Source of the DNA: Candidatus Omnitrophota bacterium
GTDB lineage: Bacteria > Omnitrophota > Gorgyraeia > Gygaellales > Profunditerraquicolaceae
Reading direction: 5' to 3'
Assembly (NCBI GenBank): GCA_041662125.1
Contig: JBAZTA010000001.1
Coordinates: 3,118 to 67,117, forward strand
Length of the DNA stretch: 64,000 nucleotides
Shown here: positions 37,352 to 50,473 of the stretch, piece by piece
Layout of the letters: every line of letters starts with the position of its first letter
Position numbering within the stretch: the stretch's first letter is position 1
The notes under the pieces: generated by a model
What the model was told of the DNA's origin: nothing
Database searches by the model: none
Seen by the model: the letters and a program-made list of their open reading frames with translations, nothing else
Translations under genes and position numbers: made by a program

Positions 37352-37429
37352 AAGACCGGGTCTTTCCAATATTTAAGTCCTACAACTTAAGACCCGGTCT
37401 TATCAAGTGTTCGCCCAAGACCCGGTCTT
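37352..37429. repeat. REP/BIME-like cluster: 3 copies of AAGACC(C/G)GGTCTT
   Basis: Copies at 37352-37364, 37389-37401, 37417-37429; between acetyltransferase start and glmM stop. Confidence 0.8.
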
Positions 37430-38796
37430 TATACTCCTAATTCCTGTTTGATCACTGAAGCTAAAGAATGGGCGATGGAATCGATTTCTGCCTTATCCTT
37501 GCCTTCTACCATGACGCGAGCCAAGGTTTCAGTACCCGAATATCGTAAAAGTATCCTGCCATTATCTTTAAGCTGCGCCAGACTGTGTTTTAAAGCGTCT
37601 CGGATCACAGGAACCTCTTCAAATGGTTTCTTTTCCTTAACTTTGATATTTACTAATATCTGCGGGTATTTTTTCATACAAGAGGATAACGCGCTAAGTT
37701 TCCTTCCTGTTTGCTGCATAACTTTCAAAATCTCCAAAGAGACTATCAGCGCATCACCTGAAGTTGACTGTTGCAGGAAAATAATATGGCCTGCCTGCTC
37801 GCCACCAAAAATCAGGTTGTTTTTCAGTAGAGCCTCAGTGACATTCCTATCTCCAACGTCAGTGCGAATAAGTTTTCCTCCTGCCTTCAGAAGTGCTTCT
37901 TCCAAGCCGAAATTACTCATGACTGTCGCCACAATGCTTTTCATAGGCAGCTTATTTTCTTTAATAAGTTGAGTGCCGACTATTGCCATAATAAAATCAC
38001 CGTCAAGGATATTGCCCAGTTCATCCGACAGGATCACCCGGTCTCCATCTCCATCATAAGAAAAACCGATATCCGCCTTATTCTTAAGTACTGCTTTTGC
38101 CATATTCTCAGGGTGAAGAGCTCCGCAGTTTAAATTGATATTTTTACCGTTTGGCTGGTCGTTTAAAACAAATACTTTCGCGCCTAATTCTTTAAATAAC
38201 TGTACCGCAATGCTATAGAGAGCGCCATGAGCGCAATCAACGACAATTTTGAGCTCGCTTAAGTCCAAATTGGATGCTTTTGATTTCAGGAAATCAATGT
38301 AAAGCCTTTCTCCATCATGCGCGTGAGTTACCAACCCTGATTCATCAACAGATAATTTGTCGGAATCGATAAAGCTGCCACTCACTAATTCTTCCATCAT
38401 CTTTTCTTGCGTATCAGAAAGTTTATACCCGGAACTTGAGAAAAACTTAATGCCGTTTTCTTCCGCGCGATTGTGAGACGCGGAAATCATAATCCCCATA
38501 TCAGCTTTCAATCTTCTGGTTAAAAATGACAGGCCCGGAGTCGAGACAATACCCACTAAAGACACATCTACTCCGCAAGCAGAAATACCGCCTACTAAAA
38601 GTTTTTCGATTACTTCACAACTAAGCCTGGTATCCTTACCGATAATGATCTTATAATGCTTCTGTCCTATTTTTCTTTGATTATGCAACAATTGCGCAGC
38701 TGCCTTACCAATTTTTAATATCATTTCATCGGTTAAAGGATATTCTCCGGGTGTTCCGCGGATCCCGTCAGTTCCGAAAAGTTTGTTTTTGCTCAT
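37429..38796 (-). CDS. glmM: Phosphoglucosamine mutase
   Basis: 455 aa; LFGTDGIRG N-terminus; active-site SASHNRAEENG. Confidence 0.85.
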   Translation of the reverse strand: MSKNKLFGTDGIRGTPGEYPLTDEMILKIGKAAAQLLHNQRKIGQKHYKIIIGKDTRLSCEVIEKLLVGGISACGVDVSLVGIVSTPGLSFLTRRLKADMGIMISASHNRAEENGIKFFSSSGYKLSDTQEKMMEELVSGSFIDSDKLSVDESGLVTHAHDGERLYIDFLKSKASNLDLSELKIVVDCAHGALYSIAVQLFKELGAKVFVLNDQPNGKNINLNCGALHPENMAKAVLKNKADIGFSYDGDGDRVILSDELGNILDGDFIMAIVGTQLIKENKLPMKSIVATVMSNFGLEEALLKAGGKLIRTDVGDRNVTEALLKNNLIFGGEQAGHIIFLQQSTSGDALIVSLEILKVMQQTGRKLSALSSCMKKYPQILVNIKVKEKKPFEEVPVIRDALKHSLAQLKDNGRILLRYSGTETLARVMVEGKDKAEIDSIAHSLASVIKQELGV

Positions 38797-38845
38797 TTTT
38801 TATTCCTATTAGTAATAAACAGTTATTTTCTATTTAATCAGATTT

Positions 38846-38894
38846 AAGACCCGGTCTTTTCTACAATTAAAATCACCAGCCAAGACCGGGTCTT
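38846..38894. repeat. REP-like 49-nt hairpin element (2 inverted 13-mers, 23-nt loop)
   Basis: Copies at 38846-38858 and 38882-38894; near-identical, in reverse orientation, to 43486-43534. Confidence 0.8.
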
Positions 38895-38914
38895 GTTAGT
38901 CGGCAATGACAAAT

Positions 38915-39703
38915 TTATAAATACCGGTAAATATATTCAGGGATATGATATTGAACATTGGTCAAGACATACCCTAAGATCTTAACGCGTGCCTGGCGTA
39001 ATATATCTTCACCATGCTTAATGATCCCTCGCTGGGTACGATTAGCTTGGATCACCATGACAACTCCGTCAGTCTGAGCCCCAATTAATCCTGCATCAGT
39101 TACCGGGATAATAGGAGGTGAATCAAAAATAACGTAATCAAACTTTTCTTTAAGTGTAGTTATTAAATTCTTAAATTTTATTGAATTAAGCAGCTCTGCC
39201 GGATTATGAGGCACTTTACCAGAAGGTAAAAACATAAGATTATCAATACCGATATTAACTACAACCTCATCGACATTTACTCCGTTACTGATCAACTCAG
39301 ATAAACCGGCTTCAGACTTAATACCTATATATTTACTTGTCTTACCCCTGCGCAAATCAGCATCAACCAGAAGTATGCGTTTCTTATTTAAATCATGCGC
39401 CATCGAAACAGCCAAGTTTATTGAAGTAACGCTTTTGCCTTCACTATGAATTGAACTGGTAATGGTGATCGCTTTGATAGGTTTTTCCGAGTTAATCGCT
39501 TGTATATTGGTCCTTAAAGTACGGTACTGTTCCGCAACAGTTGAATGAGGGTCGTAGAATGATACAATGCGCGGATCATATTTTGCATCGACCGTCTTTT
39601 GAGCAACAAACTGATAGGTCGTTTCTAATTTTTCATCTAACTTATCTATACGTGATAGCCTTTCTTCAGCAGCTTTTTTTAATGCATCAGTAATCTTTCC
39701 CAT
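38915..39703 (-). CDS. Polysaccharide co-polymerase tyrosine autokinase, cytoplasmic ATPase domain (BY-kinase, CpsD/CapB-like)
   Basis: 262 aa; Walker-A-like SEGKSVTS; C-terminal Tyr cluster YHIPEYIYRYL. Confidence 0.7.
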   Translation of the reverse strand: MGKITDALKKAAEERLSRIDKLDEKLETTYQFVAQKTVDAKYDPRIVSFYDPHSTVAEQYRTLRTNIQAINSEKPIKAITITSSIHSEGKSVTSINLAVSMAHDLNKKRILLVDADLRRGKTSKYIGIKSEAGLSELISNGVNVDEVVVNIGIDNLMFLPSGKVPHNPAELLNSIKFKNLITTLKEKFDYVIFDSPPIIPVTDAGLIGAQTDGVVMVIQANRTQRGIIKHGEDILRQARVKILGYVLTNVQYHIPEYIYRYL

Positions 39704-39712
39704 TTTTTCTCC

Positions 39713-40705
39713 TTAAAGCATGATTGAATGCTGCAAACACGTTAAATAATTATAGCAGCTATTACAGCAGAGCTGTTCTTGGCCTTTGGTTCCGCGATCC
39801 CATTTTAAACCGCAATCATTATAATGCATACAGTGAGTACAACAATGAGTCTTCTTATTGCCAATAACGAATGTACCATTAATATCATTTTGCTCTTGCA
39901 CTAATTCTCTATCTTTTATAACCTCTATTACCATACCTTCATTAATTATCTTTGTATCAGAAATATAGCCTGAAAGTAACGCGCTGTCGCAAATAAGGTT
40001 TATGATCCTGGGAACCCCTCGAGAATGACGGTAAATTAGATTAAGCGCCTGCGGCTGGAATATTTCAGCGTGTCCGTTTGAGCTCACCAATGCAAGCCTA
40101 TGCAGAACATAAGCAGTTGTTTCCTCTTGAGTTAAGGGAAAAATATGGTAGTGCAAAGCAATCCGCTGCCTGAATTGTTCAAGTTTTTTATGCCCTAATT
40201 TCTTTTTTAGCTCCGGCTGGCCAATAAGTATTATCTGCAAAAGCTTATCCGTCTCGGTTTCAAGATTAGAAAGCATCCTGACTTCTTCCAAGACATTGTG
40301 GCTTAAGTTCTGCGCTTCATCAATAATTAAAACAACATTGGTATTTTCAGCAAGCTGTTTGATTAAATAGTCGTTGAGCAAAGAAAGCATTTTCTGCTTA
40401 TTCCCGGCTTTATGCTCGATTTCAAGCTCTTCTAAGATTTGAGCTATAAGATCACGAGCTGTCAGATGAGTATTGGTGATCAAGGCGACCTTAGTATTAC
40501 TATCAAGTTTATTTAATAACGTCCGGGTGACAGTCGTTTTTCCCGCGCCAATCTCTCCGGTAATGACCACAAACCCTTTTCTTTCCTCAATAGCATAGAT
40601 CAGGCTATTCAGTGCCTCCGTATGCTTAGAGCTGGGGAAAAAGAATTTTGGGTTCGGTGTTACATTAAATGGTTTATCTTTAAAGCAAAAGAATTTTTCG
40701 TACAT
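39713..40705 (-). CDS. ExeA-like AAA ATPase (type found in exosortase/PEP-CTERM EPS loci) with a 45-aa Cys-rich C-terminal extension
   Basis: 330 aa; Walker A GEIGAGKTT; Walker B IIDEAQ; 9 Cys in C-terminal tail. Confidence 0.6.
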   Translation of the reverse strand: MYEKFFCFKDKPFNVTPNPKFFFPSSKHTEALNSLIYAIEERKGFVVITGEIGAGKTTVTRTLLNKLDSNTKVALITNTHLTARDLIAQILEELEIEHKAGNKQKMLSLLNDYLIKQLAENTNVVLIIDEAQNLSHNVLEEVRMLSNLETETDKLLQIILIGQPELKKKLGHKKLEQFRQRIALHYHIFPLTQEETTAYVLHRLALVSSNGHAEIFQPQALNLIYRHSRGVPRIINLICDSALLSGYISDTKIINEGMVIEVIKDRELVQEQNDINGTFVIGNKKTHCCTHCMHYNDCGLKWDRGTKGQEQLCCNSCYNYLTCLQHSIML

Positions 40706-40706
40706 A

Positions 40707-42002
40707 TTATTGTTTAAGTAGTGAATAAAGCATTGAGAGCACCATCACAAATATACCGCCTGCTAACCCTGAAATAATTAACAAACGTTGCCTATGTTTT
40801 TCATTATCTATCTCTTCACGAGTCGTTATGCGAGAAATTGCCCCTAAAATAGGAAATTTCAGATGATTTTTAGCATCATCAATATCAAGGAAAGATTGAT
40901 CCATGAACTCACGAGCGAATACTAATCCTACCCCTGCAGCACATCCAACAAAAAGACCCACGAATACAAAGAGTATCTTTGGTTTCTTCGGCTTTAAAGG
41001 CAACCTCGGAGGATCAATAATGGTATAGCGCGTGCCTTGTTTTGAAGCTTCAAGCCGCTGTGTGATCTTAGCTGTTTCTAACCTCTGAAGCAGCATATTG
41101 TAAATTTGCTCATTAACCCTGATATCTTGAGCCTTGGCTGAATCTAATTTATCCATCAAAAACAACTTATATATTGTTCCATTGACATCGCTTGTGCTAT
41201 TATCAACAGCTACAGGAGAAGCAGAATTTTCCGTATTAAGCTTTTCTAATTCAACCGCAAGAGTTTCACGCATCGCTTTTGTAATTGGCTTCTCAGAATC
41301 AGCAATTTTATATTCCCCGGATTCAAGCGCTTTTTTAGCCTGGTCAACTTTATACTTTAATTCTTTGACCAGCGGATGCTCTACTGTTGAATTAATAGTC
41401 AATACCCTTAACTGCTCCTCTAAATCAGCGATTTCTGATTCTTTAACTTTTCTTTTGTAAACCTGTAATTGCTCTTTAAGGAAATTAATCGCGACATCAG
41501 TTTCTTTGGTTTGAGAACGCATGCTTTCTTCAACAAACAGATCAGTTAATGTCTTAACCACTTTATAAGCAGTTTGAGGATCTTTATCTCCATACGATAT
41601 CCTGATAATGCTTTGAGCGCTCAGTTCTACCCTAATTTTCTTTGCCAGATCCTTAATAAAATCTTCAAACTGAGATTGGCTCTCTACATTTTTCGCTAAT
41701 TCAAGTTTCTTCACCAAGTCCGTGAGATTATTCCAGCCAAGCAAGCGTTCCCGTATCGTCTGCAGCCTTTGAGAAAAACTGGCGGAAACCGCTAAATCCT
41801 GGATCAGTGGATTAATAGTCCTTTGCTCTTCAACTAAAATTGCGGTTGATGCTTCATAAGTCGCCGGAAGGACAAAATATGCAACCACCCCTAAAACTAA
41901 TCCTATATACAGAGGCGTCAAAACAAACCATTTTCTGCGAAAGAAAAGTTTCAGGTATGCTAATGGATTGTTATATTTTTGTAAGGGAGTTTCATTTTCC
42001 AT
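40707..42002 (-). CDS. Polysaccharide chain-length determinant (Wzz/GumC-type co-polymerase; transmembrane/periplasmic domain partner of the BY-kinase)
   Basis: 431 aa; two TM segments flanking coiled-coil periplasmic region. Confidence 0.65.
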   Translation of the reverse strand: MENETPLQKYNNPLAYLKLFFRRKWFVLTPLYIGLVLGVVAYFVLPATYEASTAILVEEQRTINPLIQDLAVSASFSQRLQTIRERLLGWNNLTDLVKKLELAKNVESQSQFEDFIKDLAKKIRVELSAQSIIRISYGDKDPQTAYKVVKTLTDLFVEESMRSQTKETDVAINFLKEQLQVYKRKVKESEIADLEEQLRVLTINSTVEHPLVKELKYKVDQAKKALESGEYKIADSEKPITKAMRETLAVELEKLNTENSASPVAVDNSTSDVNGTIYKLFLMDKLDSAKAQDIRVNEQIYNMLLQRLETAKITQRLEASKQGTRYTIIDPPRLPLKPKKPKILFVFVGLFVGCAAGVGLVFAREFMDQSFLDIDDAKNHLKFPILGAISRITTREEIDNEKHRQRLLIISGLAGGIFVMVLSMLYSLLKQ

Positions 42003-42019
42003 ATCAATTTCCTTTAATT

Positions 42020-42889
42020 TTATTGTGCTCTTGGTCTTGTAGGAGTCCTGACTGCTGTTACTGCTCCCGTACCGGTAGTTGCCGCGGCTGCGCCACCTGC
42101 TGCTGCTGTTAAAGGTTCAGTTACCGGATTAATTATCCTGGTAACTTTTGCCATGATTGTTGATGGAACGTATAATACATCCCCGGGATGCATATCAATA
42201 TTCTGTTTAAGATTCCCCCCATAAAGAAGGGAATATAAATTCACGTATTTAGTTTTGGGGTTACCTTTCTTATCAGGAGTGATCAAACGGCATTTTCTGG
42301 TTGCAGATGCTAATGTAGGAAGCCCTGCCTCAACGATTGCTTCTCGTACCGGCATACTTTCAGAACGCATATAATATTTACCTGGCCTGCCAACCTCTCC
42401 TAATACATAGTAAACCTTACTACGGTATTCTAAAATAGTAACGTTAACTTCAGGATTAACCGCGTATGTTGATATAAGCTGTCTTATTTTGGCTTCTAAT
42501 TCTTTTTTAGTCAAGCCCGTTACATCAACATCCCCGACATATTCATACTGAATCTTGCCTTCTAAATTCACGGGGAATACACCGCTAAATTCCTGGTGGC
42601 GCTGAACCGTAATTTCAATAATATCATCAGGGCCAAGGGTATAAATCACTTCTTCGTTAGTTTTCACTGCTTTAGCCTCTGTAGCTGCCGGTACTAGTTG
42701 TTCTTGAACTTGAGCTTGGACAACTTCTGACGCTTGTTGAGCAGGCGCCTGCACTGTTGCCTCTGTAACCACAACAGTTTCTTGCGATTTCTTCACAGTC
42801 TCTTGAGCGCTCACCCAGGATATATGTAAAAAAGATATAATTAACACCAAACAAAAGCTAAATTTCTTTACCATTTCCATCCTCCACAT
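42020..42889 (-). CDS. Polysaccharide export outer-membrane/periplasmic protein (Wza family)
   Basis: Signal peptide; Poly_export-type PGDVLYVP motif. Confidence 0.7.
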   Translation of the reverse strand: MWRMEMVKKFSFCLVLIISFLHISWVSAQETVKKSQETVVVTEATVQAPAQQASEVVQAQVQEQLVPAATEAKAVKTNEEVIYTLGPDDIIEITVQRHQEFSGVFPVNLEGKIQYEYVGDVDVTGLTKKELEAKIRQLISTYAVNPEVNVTILEYRSKVYYVLGEVGRPGKYYMRSESMPVREAIVEAGLPTLASATRKCRLITPDKKGNPKTKYVNLYSLLYGGNLKQNIDMHPGDVLYVPSTIMAKVTRIINPVTEPLTAAAGGAAAATTGTGAVTAVRTPTRPRAQ

Positions 42890-43073
42890 AAAAAATTATA
42901 GTCTCTTTAAAGTTTTTAAGCTTCTTAAAATCCAGCTTATCGTAAATCCTCCAGCCGCGCCAATCTCGCTTAGGCTGTTGGACTTTACCGGATTTCTCCC
43001 AACGAACGATCGTTTTAGGAGTCACTCCGATCCTGTCTGCAACATCTGTTATAGTCATTTTGCTGTTCCCCAC
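42858..43073 (-). CDS. Small helix-turn-helix DNA-binding protein (MerR/excisionase-like HTH)
   Basis: 71 aa; ITDVADRIGVTPKTIVRWEKSGK. Confidence 0.55.
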   Translation of the reverse strand: MGNSKMTITDVADRIGVTPKTIVRWEKSGKVQQPKRDWRGWRIYDKLDFKKLKNFKETIIFYVEDGNGKEI

Positions 43074-43548: not shown

Positions 43549-43872
43549 TTATCTCTGCTGTTGCTGAGGCGGCTGTTGCCCCTGAGAAGGCATATTCATC
43601 CTTTGGGAAGAATGAAATCTCATCGGATCATTCTGGAAATTACGCATCATATCATTGTTGCGCGGGCACATTTTAGACATTAAAAACAGATTATTCGCGA
43701 TCAAAAAGAAACTTAAAACAATGATAAAGATCCCAATAGCCAAACCGATCTGTTTCATAGTCTTCTCTTCCTGATTGGCAAAATAACACACAATATAACC
43801 TAATGCTAATGCCACCAATAATACCGCTTCATTCGCCAAACTCATCTCGATACCAGGCATTCCACCCATCAT
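43549..43872 (-). CDS. Small membrane protein with Gln-rich C-terminus
   Basis: 107 aa; two hydrophobic helices; C-terminal QGQQPPQQQQR. Confidence 0.4.
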   Translation of the reverse strand: MMGGMPGIEMSLANEAVLLVALALGYIVCYFANQEEKTMKQIGLAIGIFIIVLSFFLIANNLFLMSKMCPRNNDMMRNFQNDPMRFHSSQRMNMPSQGQQPPQQQQR

Positions 43873-43910: not shown

Positions 43911-44093
43911 CTATTTAATACAATCAATCCTCCAGCAACACGCCAGTTGCTCGCAATAACTCTTCATACTGGCAAAACAGTCATAATTACCTTCTTTTCG
44001 CTGTATCATCCGGATCAACTCTTTTTTGGGATATTTCCATGGATCCCGCATGCCTAACCCTTTTGCTTTTTTCTGAACCTCAGAAAGACGCAT
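43911..44093 (-). CDS. Small Cys-rich protein (5 Cys in last 22 aa)
   Basis: 60 aa; RBS-like GGGAGG upstream; CFASMKSYCEQLACCWRIDC. Confidence 0.4.
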   Translation of the reverse strand: MRLSEVQKKAKGLGMRDPWKYPKKELIRMIQRKEGNYDCFASMKSYCEQLACCWRIDCIK

Positions 44094-45478: not shown

Positions 45479-46555
45479 CTAAACTTCAACCAGGGAATCC
45501 ATCTGGCCGTATGGATTCAATGCTTTTGTAGGGTTACTGGGGTCTTCAGTCCAGACACCGTCAACCACAAACCGGTAACGGTAACTCCCCGGACCGACGT
45601 TTAATTTCCTCGTCCACATGCCATCCCTTTTCTCCATAGTGCTCGCTTTATCGAGTTTCCAATCATTAAATTCACCCACCAGGAAAACTTCTTTTGCCGC
45701 AGGCGCATAGATAGAGAAAGTTAATTGGTTCAATTTCGGGATTTCTTCTTTCAAGATCTCCACCAATTTATCATGGATGGCAGGCATAACATTGGAGAAT
45801 TTCTCATTCATAATGACTTCACGGGACAAACTAAAATAATCCTTGGTCCCTCGGGAATATTTATCATATGCCAGAACATGTTTACCCGCATTCTGGGCTT
45901 CTTTAAGCTTGACATTAACGTGGACGATCGTATTAAATAACCGGTCTTTAAACGCAACCTTGATCTTGTCCAGCATGGTAAATGAATGACGAAGCCGAGA
46001 GTCAAAATTAGTCAATAAGACCCACCAGGCGACAGTGTGGTTGAGCCGTTCACGCACTAAATCCATGATCTCAACTAACTGAGTTAAACCTTCCAAAGAA
46101 AACCTGCTTGCTTCAACAGGTATAATGATCTCATCGGTGGCGCGGATAGCATTGATAGTCAAAAGGCCTAAATTAGGCGGGCAATCAATGATAATATAGT
46201 CATAACTATGCTTGAATTCATTGAGTTTATCCCAAAGACGCGATTCACGGCCGATCTCACCGGCTAATTCCTGTTCAAGAGTACTCAAGACTATTCTCGA
46301 TGGAGCAATATCGAAATTATCGTCAACCTTCTGGATGATATCGCTGAATTTTGCCTTCTTATTCGTTAATTTTGAAAGGACATTATAAATACTAAGATCA
46401 GCTTTTATATTCAAACCTAATGTCGCATGCGCCTGAGGATCCAGATCTACGAGCAATACGTTACGTTTATTCGCTGCTAACGATGCAGCCAGGTTCACCG
46501 CTGTCGTTGTTTTGCCACAACCACCTTTTTGATTCGTGATTGAGATGATGCGCAT
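45479..46555 (-). CDS. ParA/MinD-family deviant Walker ATPase fused to C-terminal CBM48/AMPK-beta-like glycogen-binding domain
   Basis: KGGCGKTT deviant Walker A; C-terminal [20 protein letters not shown]...[18 protein letters not shown]. Confidence 0.7.
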
Positions 46556-46618
46556 ACCTCATCCTCCTTTGCTCAATAGATTATTAACCTACGTCACCTT
46601 GGCTCATGAATGAATTAA

Positions 46619-47275
46619 TTAATGCAATAACCGGACATTATCCAAATACACAGCCCCATCTTTATTAAGGGCATTCCATTCTTCTATGATAAAAGATACA
46701 CTGGACATCTCTGTCCAATCGGTTATTTGCTTGAAATCATCGAGATTTATCTTAAACGCTTGCCACTTGTTCGTCAGGTCTCTTATATATATCTCAGACT
46801 TTTCATTGAACGCATTAACAAACTCAACGCGCAGCGCCAGTGAATCCATATAGTTTGATTTCTTACCCGAGAATTCCAAAACGTGATAGAAAACAAGGTT
46901 CTGCTTATTCAAATTAATGGAGAAAAGCTGCTTTTGGGAAGGATTAAAACTATACCCTATCTTAATGACTTCGGGATGCAGGACGTGCGTAACCTGTGAG
47001 GAGAGCGTAATATTCTTGCCTCTGGTGAGGGCAAATGAAACCAGGAACAAGAATACAACCAACACTACCGCGATGCCGATGAAGACAACATGCTTTGACT
47101 CACGCGGTTTCTCTTTATTAACCTGGTCCCGCCGCAGAGGAGTATCTAAATATATTTTTGCAAGGTGTTCATAAATATCTTTTTTTTCCATTTCATCTTT
47201 TTTATAACATAAAACCGGGTCGATGTCAACAGGTTTAACCAATTTAATAGTACGATTTCTTTTTCGCGCGGTCAT
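46619..47275 (-). CDS. Membrane-anchored hypothetical protein with C-terminal beta-sandwich (CBM-like) domain
   Basis: 218 aa; one TM; C-terminal GAVYLDNVRLL. Confidence 0.35.
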   Translation of the reverse strand: MTARKRNRTIKLVKPVDIDPVLCYKKDEMEKKDIYEHLAKIYLDTPLRRDQVNKEKPRESKHVVFIGIAVVLVVFLFLVSFALTRGKNITLSSQVTHVLHPEVIKIGYSFNPSQKQLFSINLNKQNLVFYHVLEFSGKKSNYMDSLALRVEFVNAFNEKSEIYIRDLTNKWQAFKINLDDFKQITDWTEMSSVSFIIEEWNALNKDGAVYLDNVRLLH

Positions 47276-47286
47276 TTTTTCATATT

Positions 47287-48849
47287 TTAAAATGAATCCA
47301 ATGGCTTCTTTAAATATTCAGGGATCTCTTTATTGATCAATGTATAAAAATTAGATAAGTGCGTTCGGAAAAGTTTGTCAAACCGCCCCCCATCATCGCC
47401 ATCGCCATACCACCAGAACCAATCGCTTCCTTCACAGATATACATCTGTTTCCACGCCATTTCACTGATCGTCCCGCCGGCATCACGTATCTTTTTTAAT
47501 TCTTCCCGGGCAAGCGCTAAATACTCCCAGGCGCGGACCTTAAAAGGATTGCCGATCCATTTTCCGAAATCGCCATAGATCCACGACCCCGTCCCCAAAG
47601 TATCTATTTCATGTTGAGCGGGGAATTTTCCCAGGTATTCAGAAACGGTAACCGTCTTTAAGAACGCTGCTTCAGAAAGCTTCTTATATAATACATTCAA
47701 GAAATCATGGCCGTCATTAGTAAAATGCTCCCAGGCATTCTCTCCATCCATGGCAATGGTCACTAAAACATCTTCATGTTTAAAAGCGGTGGCGATGTTC
47801 TCTAAATGTTTTAAAAGATCGGCTACCGCATCCTCCGGCCGCCAGCTATGATAGACGAATCCGATCAAATCAGAAAGATTGCGGTCCCTGAAAATTATAT
47901 TAACATTGCCTTCCTTGCGTTTTAAAAGATGAGGCTGATACAATAACACCGTATCCCTCTTCTTTTTCTTTAATGATTTAAATAAAATCGCTTCATCAGT
48001 GACGATCCATTTTACCCCCGACTGAATAATGAAGGGAAGTATCTGTTCACAAACCGACTCTTCAGACGGCCACATACCTGCGGCAGTTGCTCCAAACCTC
48101 GTCTTATAAAAATCAAGGGCGCTATCAATCTGCGCTTTAGCATCCTCAGGATACGCAAACGGGATACTCGGCAATAGAGTTTTAGGATTCGCGTCCCGGG
48201 CGGTGTTAGTGCTATATAATAAAGGTAATATAGGATGGTAATAGGGGCTTATCGTAACCTCGACTTGTTTACCTGCAACGCATTTCTTATACGCGGGGAT
48301 GATCTCTTCAATGATCTCAAACTGCTTATCCAGAACAACCAGCTTATCATCTTCGGAGAAAAACCTCCCCTTGTCCACGATAGCGCGCAGATCAGGCATA
48401 TTCTGACGGAAAGAGGGGTCAAACCATGCCAAGTTAAACCAGACCTGCAGATCTAAATAATCCTGAGTGTTAAACTCTTTACGGGATGCTTTCTTGAAGA
48501 ATAATTCATAATACCGGGGATGCATCGCGATTACTTTATCCTTGTTGATCATAAAAAAATTGTTCAGGATAAACTCTTTTTCGTCGAGCAGTAATTCAGC
48601 CGCCGGCTTATAGGAAAGTTCTAAAAATTTATCTTTTACTATGCCATGCGCATAATCTTCGACCTGCTCTAATAAAGACGGGACAAGATTAAATGTTAAA
48701 TGGACTGCAGGATATTTTTCTACGAGCCTGACCATATCCAGGTAATCTTTTATCGCGTGCAGCCGCACCCAGGGTAAATCTGTCTCCTGAGTAAGGAGGT
48801 TCTTGTAATACGGCTGGTGCATGTGGAAGATTATGGCGAGATAAAGCAT
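47287..48849 (-). CDS. Glycoside hydrolase family 57 protein (alpha-glucan acting)
   Basis: 520 aa; N-terminal IIFHMHQPYY GH57 signature. Confidence 0.75.
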   Translation of the reverse strand: MLYLAIIFHMHQPYYKNLLTQETDLPWVRLHAIKDYLDMVRLVEKYPAVHLTFNLVPSLLEQVEDYAHGIVKDKFLELSYKPAAELLLDEKEFILNNFFMINKDKVIAMHPRYYELFFKKASRKEFNTQDYLDLQVWFNLAWFDPSFRQNMPDLRAIVDKGRFFSEDDKLVVLDKQFEIIEEIIPAYKKCVAGKQVEVTISPYYHPILPLLYSTNTARDANPKTLLPSIPFAYPEDAKAQIDSALDFYKTRFGATAAGMWPSEESVCEQILPFIIQSGVKWIVTDEAILFKSLKKKKRDTVLLYQPHLLKRKEGNVNIIFRDRNLSDLIGFVYHSWRPEDAVADLLKHLENIATAFKHEDVLVTIAMDGENAWEHFTNDGHDFLNVLYKKLSEAAFLKTVTVSEYLGKFPAQHEIDTLGTGSWIYGDFGKWIGNPFKVRAWEYLALAREELKKIRDAGGTISEMAWKQMYICEGSDWFWWYGDGDDGGRFDKLFRTHLSNFYTLINKEIPEYLKKPLDSF

Positions 48850-48982: not shown

Positions 48983-48986
48983 AAAA

Positions 48987-49014
48987 CCCCCGGGGGAAAC
49001 GTACCCCCCGAGGG
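48987..49014 (-). terminator. Rho-independent terminator for the OM beta-barrel gene
   Basis: Minus strand CCCTCGGGGGGTACGTTTCCCCCGGGGG followed by TTTTTT, 25 nt after stop. Confidence 0.6.
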
Positions 49015-49039
49015 CATATTAATTACATGATCGCTACTA

Positions 49040-50473
49040 TTAGAATGTCACCTTCATGGAACCGACAACCTGGCTGGCTTTTTTATTATTTCCAGCGACA
49101 AACACATTACCAGGCATGAATATTCCGGTATTTAAACCGAACTGAACGTCTTCAGTATAATCATAGGTAACACCTAAATCAATTTCACTACCAAGATATT
49201 TCTTACCGGCTTTTACCGCGTAGGTAGGATCTCCCGCGACTCCTGAGAAATTAATCAGATTATTACCGGTAAAAGAATTGTTAAGCCTTATATAGTAGTA
49301 ATTCAACGCTACTTTTAGGTCTTCCATCGGCTTAACACTGCCATTCAAATTCAACAACTGCGCATTCGAGTACCCTAAGATCTTGTTGAATAAGGTCCCG
49401 CCTGCCTGATCTTCGAACATGGGATCCCAACCTGTATAGCTATCAGAAGTACTGCGAGCTTTATCACCAGAAAGAAAGGTGTAGCTTCCGCCAACGCTTG
49501 GGGTATATTTCTTGCTCGGCATCGCCATATTCGCTATCGCTTGAAGAGCAAAAGCTCTAACCTGACGATTTTTATTTGCATCCGGCGCTGAAGCTACATC
49601 ATTCGGATACAAGGTTGTATTAGCCTGATGCTCGCCAAACTGGAAAGCGCCTTCTATCCCTAATATCATATTTTCGATGCCTGTGAAAGCTAATCTGGCA
49701 CCGGTTGTATTTAATGTTTCAGAGCTGGTGATAGCGCCAATGCTACCTGTATCTCTGTTTCTGGAGAACAAGTAAACCTCGGCATTCAAGTTATCATCAA
49801 TCTTGAAACCGGCGTTTACTCCATACAAATTAATATCATCTTCAATTGCGACGCTATTTTCATTGATCTTGGAATAAACAACATCAAGCACCAAAGGATC
49901 GAAATTCAAAGTTGCTCTCATCGCGTCAAATGCTTTGCTGCTGCTTAAATCATCCAAAGAACCAGGTAAACCACGCTTATCGGTAGTACCATGCCCAGTA
50001 CCAATACCATTGGTTGAAGCTGCGCCGATAACCAAACCATTACCGAATTTCATTTCCTGACGGCCGATGCTCAACGTTAAATGAGGATTCAAGAATTCCT
50101 TTAACGTAACATACGCCAAGTCCAAATCGATTTCGGTAGTATTGGCAACCGTAGTGGTTCCTGCGGCATTAAGCTGATTTCCAGCTCCCCACACTCTTTC
50201 GTTTAATAATCTGACTACGGTAGAGACATTATCAGTAAGATCAGCCTCAACTTTGACTCTCACGTTTGAAATTAATGCTGTGATCTTACGGCTGAAACCT
50301 TGGGTTGTCGCTGTTATATCAGCAGTTTTCAAAGATAAATTATTTCTAGCAACACCCATTACCGTGATATCTCCGCTGACTTTCACATTCTGGACCTCTG
50401 CGAATGCAGTAAAAGCCATACCTACTACAAACGCAAGAGCAATTACTACGATTAAACGTTTACTCATTTGCAT
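49040..50473 (-). CDS. Outer-membrane beta-barrel protein (porin-like), signal peptide, C-terminal Phe
   Basis: 477 aa; cleavable signal; alternating amphipathic strands; terminal ...KVTF. Confidence 0.55.
   Translation of the reverse strand: MQMSKRLIVVIALAFVVGMAFTAFAEVQNVKVSGDITVMGVARNNLSLKTADITATTQGFSRKITALISNVRVKVEADLTDNVSTVVRLLNERVWGAGNQLNAAGTTTVANTTEIDLDLAYVTLKEFLNPHLTLSIGRQEMKFGNGLVIGAASTNGIGTGHGTTDKRGLPGSLDDLSSSKAFDAMRATLNFDPLVLDVVYSKINENSVAIEDDINLYGVNAGFKIDDNLNAEVYLFSRNRDTGSIGAITSSETLNTTGARLAFTGIENMILGIEGAFQFGEHQANTTLYPNDVASAPDANKNRQVRAFALQAIANMAMPSKKYTPSVGGSYTFLSGDKARSTSDSYTGWDPMFEDQAGGTLFNKILGYSNAQLLNLNGSVKPMEDLKVALNYYYIRLNNSFTGNNLINFSGVAGDPTYAVKAGKKYLGSEIDLGVTYDYTEDVQFGLNTGIFMPGNVFVAGNNKKASQVVGSMKVTF

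Follow-up and report, generated by a model that had tools for sequence, protein, structure and literature searches.

To place large objects, from chromosomes and plasmids to carboxysomes, chemoreceptor arrays and the division site, bacteria generally rely on ATPases of the ParA/MinD superfamily. Glycogen is the most widespread bacterial carbon reserve, and no positioning or inheritance system for it was found in the literature searched. What might a ParA-type ATPase do with a glycogen-binding module built into its own polypeptide chain? The question is raised by a gene in a 64-kb stretch of DNA from a Candidatus Omnitrophota bacterium (contig JBAZTA010000001.1; hereafter the window, in which positions are counted from the first nucleotide), whose product joins a Soj-like ParA ATPase to a C-terminal carbohydrate-binding module of family 48 (CBM48). 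A first, sequence-only reading of this DNA had noticed the fusion and inferred from it the active partitioning of glycogen granules. To judge from the comparisons assembled here, the protein is a member of a distinct and widespread clade of orphan Soj-like ParA ATPases that carry a C-terminal CBM48 on a flexible linker. As to function, we tentatively favor an ATP-gated tether that would fasten glycogen particles to the nucleoid and be reset by a partner peptide differing between lineages; to this reading we give somewhat less than an even chance.

The fusion gene is preceded by a strong Shine-Dalgarno sequence (AGGAGG, 46563-46568) ahead of its ATG, and the complete set of ParA/Soj motifs that had been read from the sequence is indeed present on the minus strand: the deviant Walker A motif KGGCGKTT (residues 10-17), Walker A' (D37/D39) and Walker B (D124). 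Pfam profiles AAA_31 (E-value 4.1e-55, residues 1-175) and CbiA (8.8e-18) match the N-terminal part above their curated cutoffs, and in a PDB search residues 2-249 matched the chromosomal ParA of Myxococcus xanthus (8RAY, 4.5e-56), Thermus Soj (1WCV, 7.5e-38) and Helicobacter pylori Soj. At the other end, the match to CBM48/AMPK-beta modules predicted by the sequence-only reading was borne out by AMPK1_CBM on residues 286-358 (6.3e-12, 46.0 bits against a curated cutoff of 26.8) and CBM_48 (5.5e-9, 36.7 bits against 22.4), and residues 271-357 matched the glycogen-binding module of AMPK beta1 in the PDB (1Z0N, 2.6e-9). An AlphaFold2 model (mean predicted local distance difference test score, pLDDT, 83.8) recovered both a Soj-like domain and an all-beta C-terminal module, joined by a helical linker. 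In blocks of ten residues, pLDDT in the ATPase domain is mostly 80-96, falling to 61-75 near residues 60-70 and 90-110, and it is about 90 across the all-beta module (residues 277-357). The ATPase part superposes on Soj/ParA structures in Foldseek with TM-scores of 0.91-0.93. The deviant Walker A motif, the Walker A'/B aspartates and the Soj/MinD fold that define the ParA/MinD superfamily are thus all found, and the catalytic residues for a putative ATP-dependent dimerization and ATPase activity are present.

An assembly chimera or a frameshift between the two halves was ruled out, as the open reading frame (ORF) is unbroken and independent assemblies, hundreds in all, show the two domains joined in the same way, among them those behind more than 120 clusters from JGI, ENA, NCBI and Logan. 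The 120 best clusters (90% identity level) of a first homologue search align over the full length with the same Pfam combination at 67-96% identity, nearly all of them at 67-78% and one at 96%; those that are named come from Candidatus Omnitrophica/Omnitrophota, and a few have no match to the CBM_48 model while keeping AMPK1_CBM. A HMMER search of 1.84 billion cluster representatives gave 61,654 ParA-like matches; of the best 150, 132 are 330-700 aa long, and in 124 of these a CBM48 follows the ATPase, behind a linker of very variable length. These 124 clusters (50% identity) come on top of the Omnitrophota ones, and at least 109 of them have the KGGCGKT P-loop. Across the family, lengths spread from 330 to 698 aa and the linker reaches about 250 residues in some Planctomycetota (in locus L080 the CBM lies at residues 508-599), and CBM48 always occupies the extreme C-terminus. 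Full-length matches at 33-45% identity were also obtained from a scan of GTDB species representatives, in metagenome-assembled genomes labelled as at least 10 phyla; the carriers include Planctomycetota (Phycisphaerae, Pirellulales, Sedimentisphaerales), Myxococcota/Deltaproteobacteria, Thermodesulfobacteriota, Eisenbacteria, Krumholzibacteriia, Gemmatimonadales, Rokuibacteriota, Acidobacteriota, Margulisiibacteriota, Auribacter, Gammaproteobacteria and others. When the search was seeded with a deltaproteobacterial member, identity was 73-83% in nearly all of the 120 best Myxococcota/delta clusters. The architecture is therefore found in many clusters and phyla. Source databases, where they name these proteins at all, have them as 'AAA family ATPase', 'chromosome partitioning protein' or 'hypothetical protein'. 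In the literature searched, no paper connected ParA/MinD proteins with CBM48 or with the positioning of glycogen, in agreement with the initial impression that the protein could not be placed in a described family.

Residue conservation, counted over 125 diverse family cluster representatives, points to strong purifying selection on the fusion. The ATPase switch residues are nearly invariant (K10 and K15 98%, as K or R; D37 97%; D39 and D124 98%), and the clade carries a signature of its own, comprising C13 of KGGCGKT (92%), H43 of DPQxH (95%) and K/R218 (82%), to which the motif N-V/T-K-L-K/R-E also belongs. The GTDB scan was seeded partly with NQKGGCGK, which makes the universal KGGCGKT among its loci partly circular; the 92% for C13 comes from the unbiased HMMER set. 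Canonical Soj genes recovered by the same scan (the parB-linked loci L075 and L084) read KGGVGKT and mostly NVRLSEA, with DPQGN or DPQAN where that motif was detected; the gene of about 300 aa beside each of them is presumed to encode ParB/Spo0J.

These differences bear on whether the protein is simply an ordinary chromosome-partitioning ParA (Soj) with an accessory domain, as its closest solved structures (chromosomal ParA/Soj, 42-44% identity) and the label 'chromosome partitioning protein' in some databases could suggest. We consider this extremely improbable. KGGCGKT/DPQxH departs from the KGGVGKT/DPQGN of parB-linked Soj, no parB is listed beside the fusion in any examined locus across phyla, and the ParB-like peptide of the neighboring gene, described below, sits on a protein that is not ParB. 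A ParBc domain was absent from the listed families of the neighbors in the window, in L001-L004 and L085-L086 and among 234 neighbors of 46 loci, parS sites not having been searched for. Myxococcota, which carry the fusion family, have a separate ParABS system (10.1101/2025.03.14.642875), a further reason to disfavor this explanation. A canonical chromosomal or plasmid ParA was accordingly rejected as an identity on the strength of the missing ParB neighbor and the distinct signature; the best plasmid matches cover the ParA part only and are Soj genes, the annotated ones (H3, H7) including a parB-family gene.

Does the ATPase still bind DNA? K216 aligns with K230 of H. pylori Soj (HpSoj), which was crystallized with DNA, and with the arginine of NVRLSE in Soj and M. 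xanthus ParA, a position that we presume, from the motif, to be Soj R189 and M. xanthus R238. The R238E mutant of M. xanthus ParA loses DNA binding (10.1101/2025.03.14.642875). Within the family, lysine or arginine is found in 81% of representatives at position 216, 82% at 218, 90% at 187 and 72% at 192, and positions 187, 189 and 192 are 70-90% basic. The Soj-like ATPase of the fusion probably still binds DNA. The window protein itself has F192 and V213 where HpSoj has K199 and K227, two of the residues (K199/K227/K230/K247) that we take to be its DNA contacts.

The evidence for the second ligand is of the same kind. Within the CBM, W299 and Y327 are conserved in 100% of representatives, D338 in 99%, K/R328 and W335 in 97%, G350 in 95%, N341 in 94% and N/D353 in 92%. 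The HMMER alignment to 1Z0N places W299, R328, W335, Y349, G350 and D353 at AMPK beta1 W100, K126, W133, L146, G147 and N150, where the AMPK residues contact cyclodextrin or glycogen. Judged by this alignment, the sugar-binding platform is intact and equivalent to AMPK beta1 W100/K126/W133/N150, so that both marks of the CBM48/AMPK1_CBM families, a profile match above threshold and the platform itself, are found, and the module is probably a functional glycogen-binding one. Because the protein has neither a signal peptide nor a transmembrane segment, its CBM48 would be exposed to the cytoplasm, in which the alpha-glucan to be expected is glycogen. Four proteins of 1,300-1,800 aa (P0121, P0140, P0225 and P0263) carry 7-18 tandem CBM48 modules closely related to that of the fusion and no ParA domain.

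ParA partners are usually recognized by an invariant cytoplasmic N-terminal peptide on a protein whose gene adjoins that of the ParA-like ATPase, and in Omnitrophota the protein encoded directly upstream has such a peptide. This membrane protein adjoins the fusion in 17 of 18 core Omnitrophota loci with a callable fusion ORF and in three divergent loci. Its 412 detectable homologues have no Pfam domain; the named ones are 'hypothetical protein' and nearly all come from Omnitrophota. Since most of the listed homologues measure 185-195 aa, the true start is probably M29 (47191) of the annotated frame. Among 60 sequences that are about 48% identical overall, M1, I6, Y7, E8, H9, L10, A11, I13, Y14, L15 and D16 are invariant, within the 16-residue cytoplasmic N-terminal peptide M-E-K-K-D-I-Y-E-H-L-A-K-I-Y-L-D. 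AlphaFold2 predicts a helix at residues 3-16, a transmembrane helix at 32-58 with basic residues on its N-terminal side, and a periplasmic nine-strand beta sandwich at 68-189 (pLDDT >90) with a CBM11/30-like fold, so the description of this product as a membrane-anchored CBM-like protein was right at the level of the fold. By analogy with known ParA partners, it is a likely candidate for the partner or anchor of the ATPase in Omnitrophota.

The sequence-only reading had instead proposed as a ParB/McdB-like activator the lysine-rich protein encoded immediately downstream, and this is neither supported nor excluded by what we found. The protein has no match in Pfam or NCBIfam; its tail is conserved in composition only and varies in length, while the C-terminal 75 residues are well conserved, and a profile of them against the PDB found domain II of eEFSec (8e-4) and, more weakly, domain II of EF-Tu, consistent with an EF-Tu-domain-II-like barrel. 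Some loci have no copy of the gene or have it elsewhere, as does L025, with a copy about 6 kb off on the opposite strand. A lysine-rich nucleoid-binding tail, as in the granule proteins PhaM and PhaF, would be an equally good reading of it. Other recurrent Omnitrophota neighbors are this lysine-rich protein itself (16 loci, at +1/+2), an AlgE-like porin (13 loci) and a 108-aa protein with three transmembrane segments (10 loci), absent from the window.

Outside Omnitrophota, the immediate downstream gene opens with (K)LGRGL-x-[DE]-[VI]-S-H-x-F-L-S in about 29 loci, including L023, L026, L029, L030, L033, L038, L042, L059, L071 and L082; the Myxococcota variant reads PRDLADVLHYFLPELE. The peptide, abbreviated LGRGLxDVSHxFLS, resembles the ParA-activating N-terminus of ParB, and the bodies behind it are degenerate MinD/CbiA-like proteins, AAA_22 proteins or proteins with no Pfam match. 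From its sequence, this looks like an undescribed family of ParA partners. Two Nitrospirota loci (L071, L082) have an ATPase of the same clade and the same partner, and no CBM48. The candidate partner peptides (residues 1-20 of the membrane protein; KLGRGLEDVSHLFLS) are better candidates than the lysine-rich protein: the membrane-protein peptide in Omnitrophota, and LGRGLxDVSHxFLS in other phyla. No significant similarity was found between the two: a motif hidden Markov model (HMM) of LGRGLxDVSHxFLS had no match in Omnitrophota and hhalign gave P = 0.18, and we treat them as analogous at most.

The simplest mechanism accommodating these elements would be a nucleotide-gated tether, in which we infer glycogen binding, DNA binding, the contact between peptide and ParA, and the cellular outcome alike. 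Binding of ATP would produce an ATPase dimer, whose basic surface would bind nucleoid DNA non-specifically while its two CBM48 modules gripped the outer chains of cytoplasmic glycogen through avidity. Glycogen particles would then be held on and spread along the nucleoid and so be inherited by both daughters. Docking of the partner's conserved N-terminal peptide on the dimer would trigger ATP hydrolysis and release the tether. The likely partner in Omnitrophota would be the membrane protein next door, and through its periplasmic CBM-like domain the switch could be coupled to the envelope; elsewhere the part would fall to the MinD-like or AAA_22 protein with the ParB-like LGRGLxDVSHxFLS peptide. 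The active partitioning of granules proposed by the sequence-only reading would be one possible outcome: for a ParA that brings along a cargo-binding domain, a tether to the nucleoid, or a switch targeted to glycogen, is no worse a fit than a ratchet of the ParB type.

Several observations weigh against the tether. A ParA that binds its cargo directly breaks with the canonical arrangement of a cargo-borne partner, and for that reason directed transport would not follow automatically. The near-constant partner in Omnitrophota is a membrane protein, with nothing of an obvious granule protein about it. Since L071 and L082 keep the partner and have no CBM, the ATPase-partner module can work without glycogen binding. 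The window protein lacks two of the four HpSoj DNA-contact lysines (F192, V213), which makes its DNA binding only putative. Finally, linkage of the gene to glg genes is confined to one subclade of Omnitrophota.

The location of the cargo-binding domain on the ATPase, together with the variable body of the partner, makes a serious rival of the idea that glycogen is a matrix or landmark and not a cargo. CBM48 would replace the membrane helix of MinD, the ATP dimer would bind glycogen bivalently, and the partner-peptide protein would be what is recruited to, patterned on or released from glycogen particles. The ATPase and its extreme C-terminal CBM48 are indeed constant in the family, the partner body varies (membrane-anchored CBM-like protein, degenerate MinD, AAA_22) as would be expected of cargo adaptors, and the window protein lacks some Soj DNA-contact residues. 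We nevertheless think this unlikely: the family largely keeps the basic Soj DNA-binding positions, for which an ATPase bound to glycogen alone would have no use, no ParA/MinD ATPase with a polysaccharide matrix is known, and a membrane-embedded cargo would be hard to move over a granule. Were glycogen the binding matrix, with dimerization switching on bivalent binding, this would be the first positioning ATPase to work on a polysaccharide surface instead of DNA or membrane, which we hold to be distinctly unlikely; it would also amount to a bacterial, ATP-gated counterpart of eukaryotic glycogen-targeting subunits.

How far does the surrounding DNA connect the tether to alpha-glucans? The gene two positions upstream of the fusion encodes a GH57 enzyme whose closest PDB match is the amylopullulanase of Aquifex aeolicus (9JLQ/8ZYI, 4e-85). 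The catalytic dyad of that enzyme (AaApu) is E256/D352 (PMC12106739), with which E263/D368 of the window protein align, so that both the family profile and the Glu/Asp dyad of GH57 are found. The catalytic domain begins at residue 5, which leaves no room for a signal peptide; this is in line with the cytoplasmic location ascribed to the enzyme, whose HQPYY motif is present, and it is probably a glycogen-degrading or debranching enzyme. When the ORFs of 84 related loci were clustered for comparison of gene context, GH57 occupied position -2 in 11 loci of one Omnitrophota subclade (the window and 10 relatives) and was missing from more divergent Omnitrophota loci. A divergent fusion (39% identity) in Omnitrophica RBG_13_46_9 (L058, 1884-9483) is convergent with genes for a GH77 4-alpha-glucanotransferase, a GH57-DUF3536 protein and glycogen phosphorylase, and L029 has a GH57 gene at +4 from the fusion. 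Pfam enrichment over the 234 neighbors of 46 divergent loci, mostly from other phyla, found alpha-glucan genes within its three-gene window at L058 only, the GH57 of L029 lying outside that window at +4. The operon context with GH57 on which the sequence-only reading relied therefore stands for the window's own subclade, with alpha-glucan genes also at L029 and L058, and does not extend to a general glg linkage, of which the 46 divergent loci show none; the link to alpha-glucan catabolism recurs in three separate settings and is not universal. Most of the Omnitrophota metagenome-assembled genomes analyzed from Ace Lake were inferred to synthesize glycogen (PMC8542988).

Table 1. Positions of the fusion, its domains and neighboring features in the window, in order of transcription
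Feature	Position	Strand	Evidence or description
AlgE-like porin	49040-50473	-	Pfam Alginate_exp 5.5e-18
Intrinsic-terminator-like hairpin, directly after porin gene	48986-49015	-	12-bp stem, 9 G-C pairs, T tract
GH57 enzyme, no signal peptide	47287-48849	-	Pfam Glyco_hydro_57 7.5e-62; HQPYY at residues 11-15
Promoter-like TTGACA-17 nt-TATAAA, near-consensus sigma-70-like	47201-47229	-	Read directly from sequence
Bitopic membrane protein, ~190 aa (ORF readable back to 47275)	46619..47191	-	N-terminal peptide, one transmembrane helix, periplasmic beta-jelly-roll CBM-like domain
ParA-CBM48 fusion ORF	45479-46555	-	358 aa, uninterrupted
ParA/Soj-type ATPase domain (residues 1-254)	45794..46555	-	Pfam AAA_31, PDB, AlphaFold2, Foldseek
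Linker (residues 255-276), predicted low-confidence helix	45728..45793	-	AlphaFold2 pLDDT 53-68, helix 256-271
C-terminal CBM48/AMPK-beta-type alpha-glucan-binding module (residues 277-358)	45482..45727	-	Pfam, 1Z0N alignment, AlphaFold2
Lysine-rich protein, 131 aa	44996-45391	-	Lysine-rich N-terminal tail of ~55 aa and conserved C-terminal beta-barrel
Proteasome-beta-like Ntn-hydrolase homologue, 237 aa	44283-44996	-	Pfam Proteasome 9.5e-12 (residues 4-70 only); NCBIfam archaeal proteasome beta 1.9e-11
Small conserved genes downstream of ATPase	43911-44093, 43549-43872	-	60-aa Cys-rich protein (...EGNYDCF...C...CCWR.DC); membrane protein of ~90-107 aa
Exopolysaccharide-export module	37429-43073	-	MerR (71 aa), Poly_export/SLBB, GNVR/Wzz, AAA_22, AAA_31 BY-kinase-like gene, then PGM/PMM

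All confidently called genes of the window lie on the minus strand. Transcription runs from the porin across the terminator-like hairpin to GH57, the membrane protein, ParA-CBM48, the lysine-rich protein, the proteasome-beta-like gene, two small genes and the exopolysaccharide (EPS)-export module (Table 1). By the evidence of the hairpin after the porin, GH57 is the first gene of its transcription unit, and in this genome it is probably co-transcribed with the fusion. The hairpin splits the porin from the GH57-ParA unit although synteny of the porin with the unit is conserved. Our promoter scan, which accepts only -10 hexamers ending in T, did not list the promoter-like element ahead of the membrane protein. 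This element falls within the annotated 5' extension of that protein's ORF and ends about 10 nt before the ATG at 47191, which suggests an internal promoter giving a near-leaderless transcript for membrane protein and ATPase, separate from GH57. Downstream, the proteasome-beta-like ATG overlaps the stop of the lysine-rich gene, and this gene has no counterpart at that position in the syntenic loci of relatives; small conserved genes downstream of the ATPase are also seen in relatives (L003, L005, L007-L009, L011), which further encode a DUF134 protein and a 61-aa CxxC...CxxC protein that the window does not have. The same EPS-export module lies a few kilobases downstream of the ATPase in L001 and L002, and in the window some 35 kb, presumably of glycosyltransferase and sugar-nucleotide genes, come after it. 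The window has a negative GC skew over its whole length; its G+C content climbs past about 44 kb, from about 0.38 to about 0.45.

This neighborhood invites an envelope role in place of a storage role: the ATPase could act like BcsQ in the secretion of an envelope polysaccharide, possibly an alpha-glucan, organizing the porin, the membrane CBM protein and the polymer. Omnitrophota synteny (AlgE-like porin, in some loci GH57, the membrane CBM protein, the ATPase and, further on, a Wza/Wzz/BY-kinase module) and a Pfam CBP_BcsQ match (1.4e-11) are in line with such a function, which we regard as very unlikely all the same, given that the unit contains no glycosyltransferase or synthase, the porin gene is followed by a terminator, family members in many phyla have no such neighbors, and the BcsQ match is far weaker than the Soj match. 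The fusion was also rejected as a BY-kinase, scoring 50 bits with TIGR03018 (cutoff 230) and 44 with TIGR01007 (cutoff 108) and having no tyrosine cluster; a separate BY-kinase-like gene is located at 38915-39703 in the EPS locus. Nor was support found for a part in anti-phage defense, PADLOC having returned trivial P-loop matches only.

The same neighbors, read with the AMPK parallel in mind, could instead belong to a sensor or regulator of the carbon reserve, with a Soj-like switch sequestered by or released from glycogen and thereby signaling the storage state to transcription, replication or envelope polysaccharide synthesis. The idea is one of analogy: the AMPK beta CBM reports on glycogen, and Soj regulates DnaA. 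A MerR gene lies upstream in 7, and an extracytoplasmic function (ECF) sigma factor gene downstream in 6, of the 46 divergent loci, mostly from other phyla; a MerR gene also heads the EPS-export module a few kilobases downstream of the fusion in the window and in L001, and the Omnitrophota partner, with its periplasmic glycan-binding fold, adjoins the AlgE-like porin. On the other side, this regulator adjacency is confined to 6-7 of the 46 loci, a terminator separates porin and operon, and no DNA-binding regulatory domain is fused to the ATPase, and we judge the sensor to be quite unlikely.

The significance of the family lies in what it makes accessible. Hundreds of sequence clusters in at least 10 phyla, about 70% identical within phyla, form a sequence-defined candidate that makes the spatial organization and active inheritance of bacterial glycogen directly testable, and the two short partner peptides are possible biochemical handles. 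Its design, with the ligand-binding module within the ATPase rather than delegated to a partner, has not yet been described in the superfamily. Should its role turn out to be another one, perhaps as a sensor or as a scaffold for glycogen enzymes, a glycogen-binding protein with a nucleotide switch would still be a novelty in bacterial carbon storage.

Among known systems, chromosomal ParA/Soj shares with the fusion the fold and the deviant Walker A switch, at 42-44% identity to Bacillus subtilis Soj and M. xanthus ParA and 34-35% to Thermus Soj (1WCV) and Helicobacter Soj (6IUB). The fusion resembles Soj further in the basic residue at a key DNA-binding position and in the partner peptide of other phyla, which recalls the N-terminal LGRGL of ParB. 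It differs from ParABS in having no ParB beside it, a signature of its own (KGGCGKT, DPQxH, the extra K/R218), non-ParB partners and a C-terminal CBM48, which to our knowledge no described ParA carries. McdA/McdB, PpfA-TlpT, ParC-ParP and PomXYZ likewise place an orphan ParA-like ATPase beside a small partner with a likely activating N-terminal peptide, for which the fusion has candidates next to it; McdA matches the fusion structurally with TM-scores of 0.82-0.83, and the role expected of McdAB-type systems, the distribution of a bulky cytoplasmic object, is the one proposed here. In those systems the partner recognizes the cargo, whereas here the module binding cargo or matrix is built into the ATPase, and we know of no ParA/MinD system reported to act on a polysaccharide particle.

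Functional analogues can be sought among granule proteins. PhaM of Ralstonia eutropha and PhaF of Pseudomonas putida tether polyhydroxybutyrate/polyhydroxyalkanoate (PHB/PHA) granules to the nucleoid by binding both the polymer granule and DNA, so that the granules are spread and inherited, and their lysine-rich, histone-H1-like tails resemble the tail of the lysine-rich protein; unlike the fusion, they are not ATPases, have no nucleotide switch and show no kinship in sequence or fold. The module itself, with the same Trp-Lys/Arg-Trp platform, is that of AMPK beta, SEX4/LSF, laforin and Stbd1, where it targets a protein to glycogen or starch; in contrast to AMPK beta, it is joined here to a bacterial ParA ATPase, and the kinase/phosphatase context is missing. 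Finally, MinD belongs to the same superfamily, and its C-terminal appendage sets the surface bound by the ATP dimer, while BcsQ is a precedent for a ParA/MinD ATPase that works with polysaccharide machinery. MinD itself was rejected as an identity, as the C-terminus of the fusion is a beta-sandwich CBM48 and not an amphipathic membrane-targeting helix; no min or bcs genes lie nearby, and identity to MinD and BcsQ is 18-24%, far weaker than to Soj.

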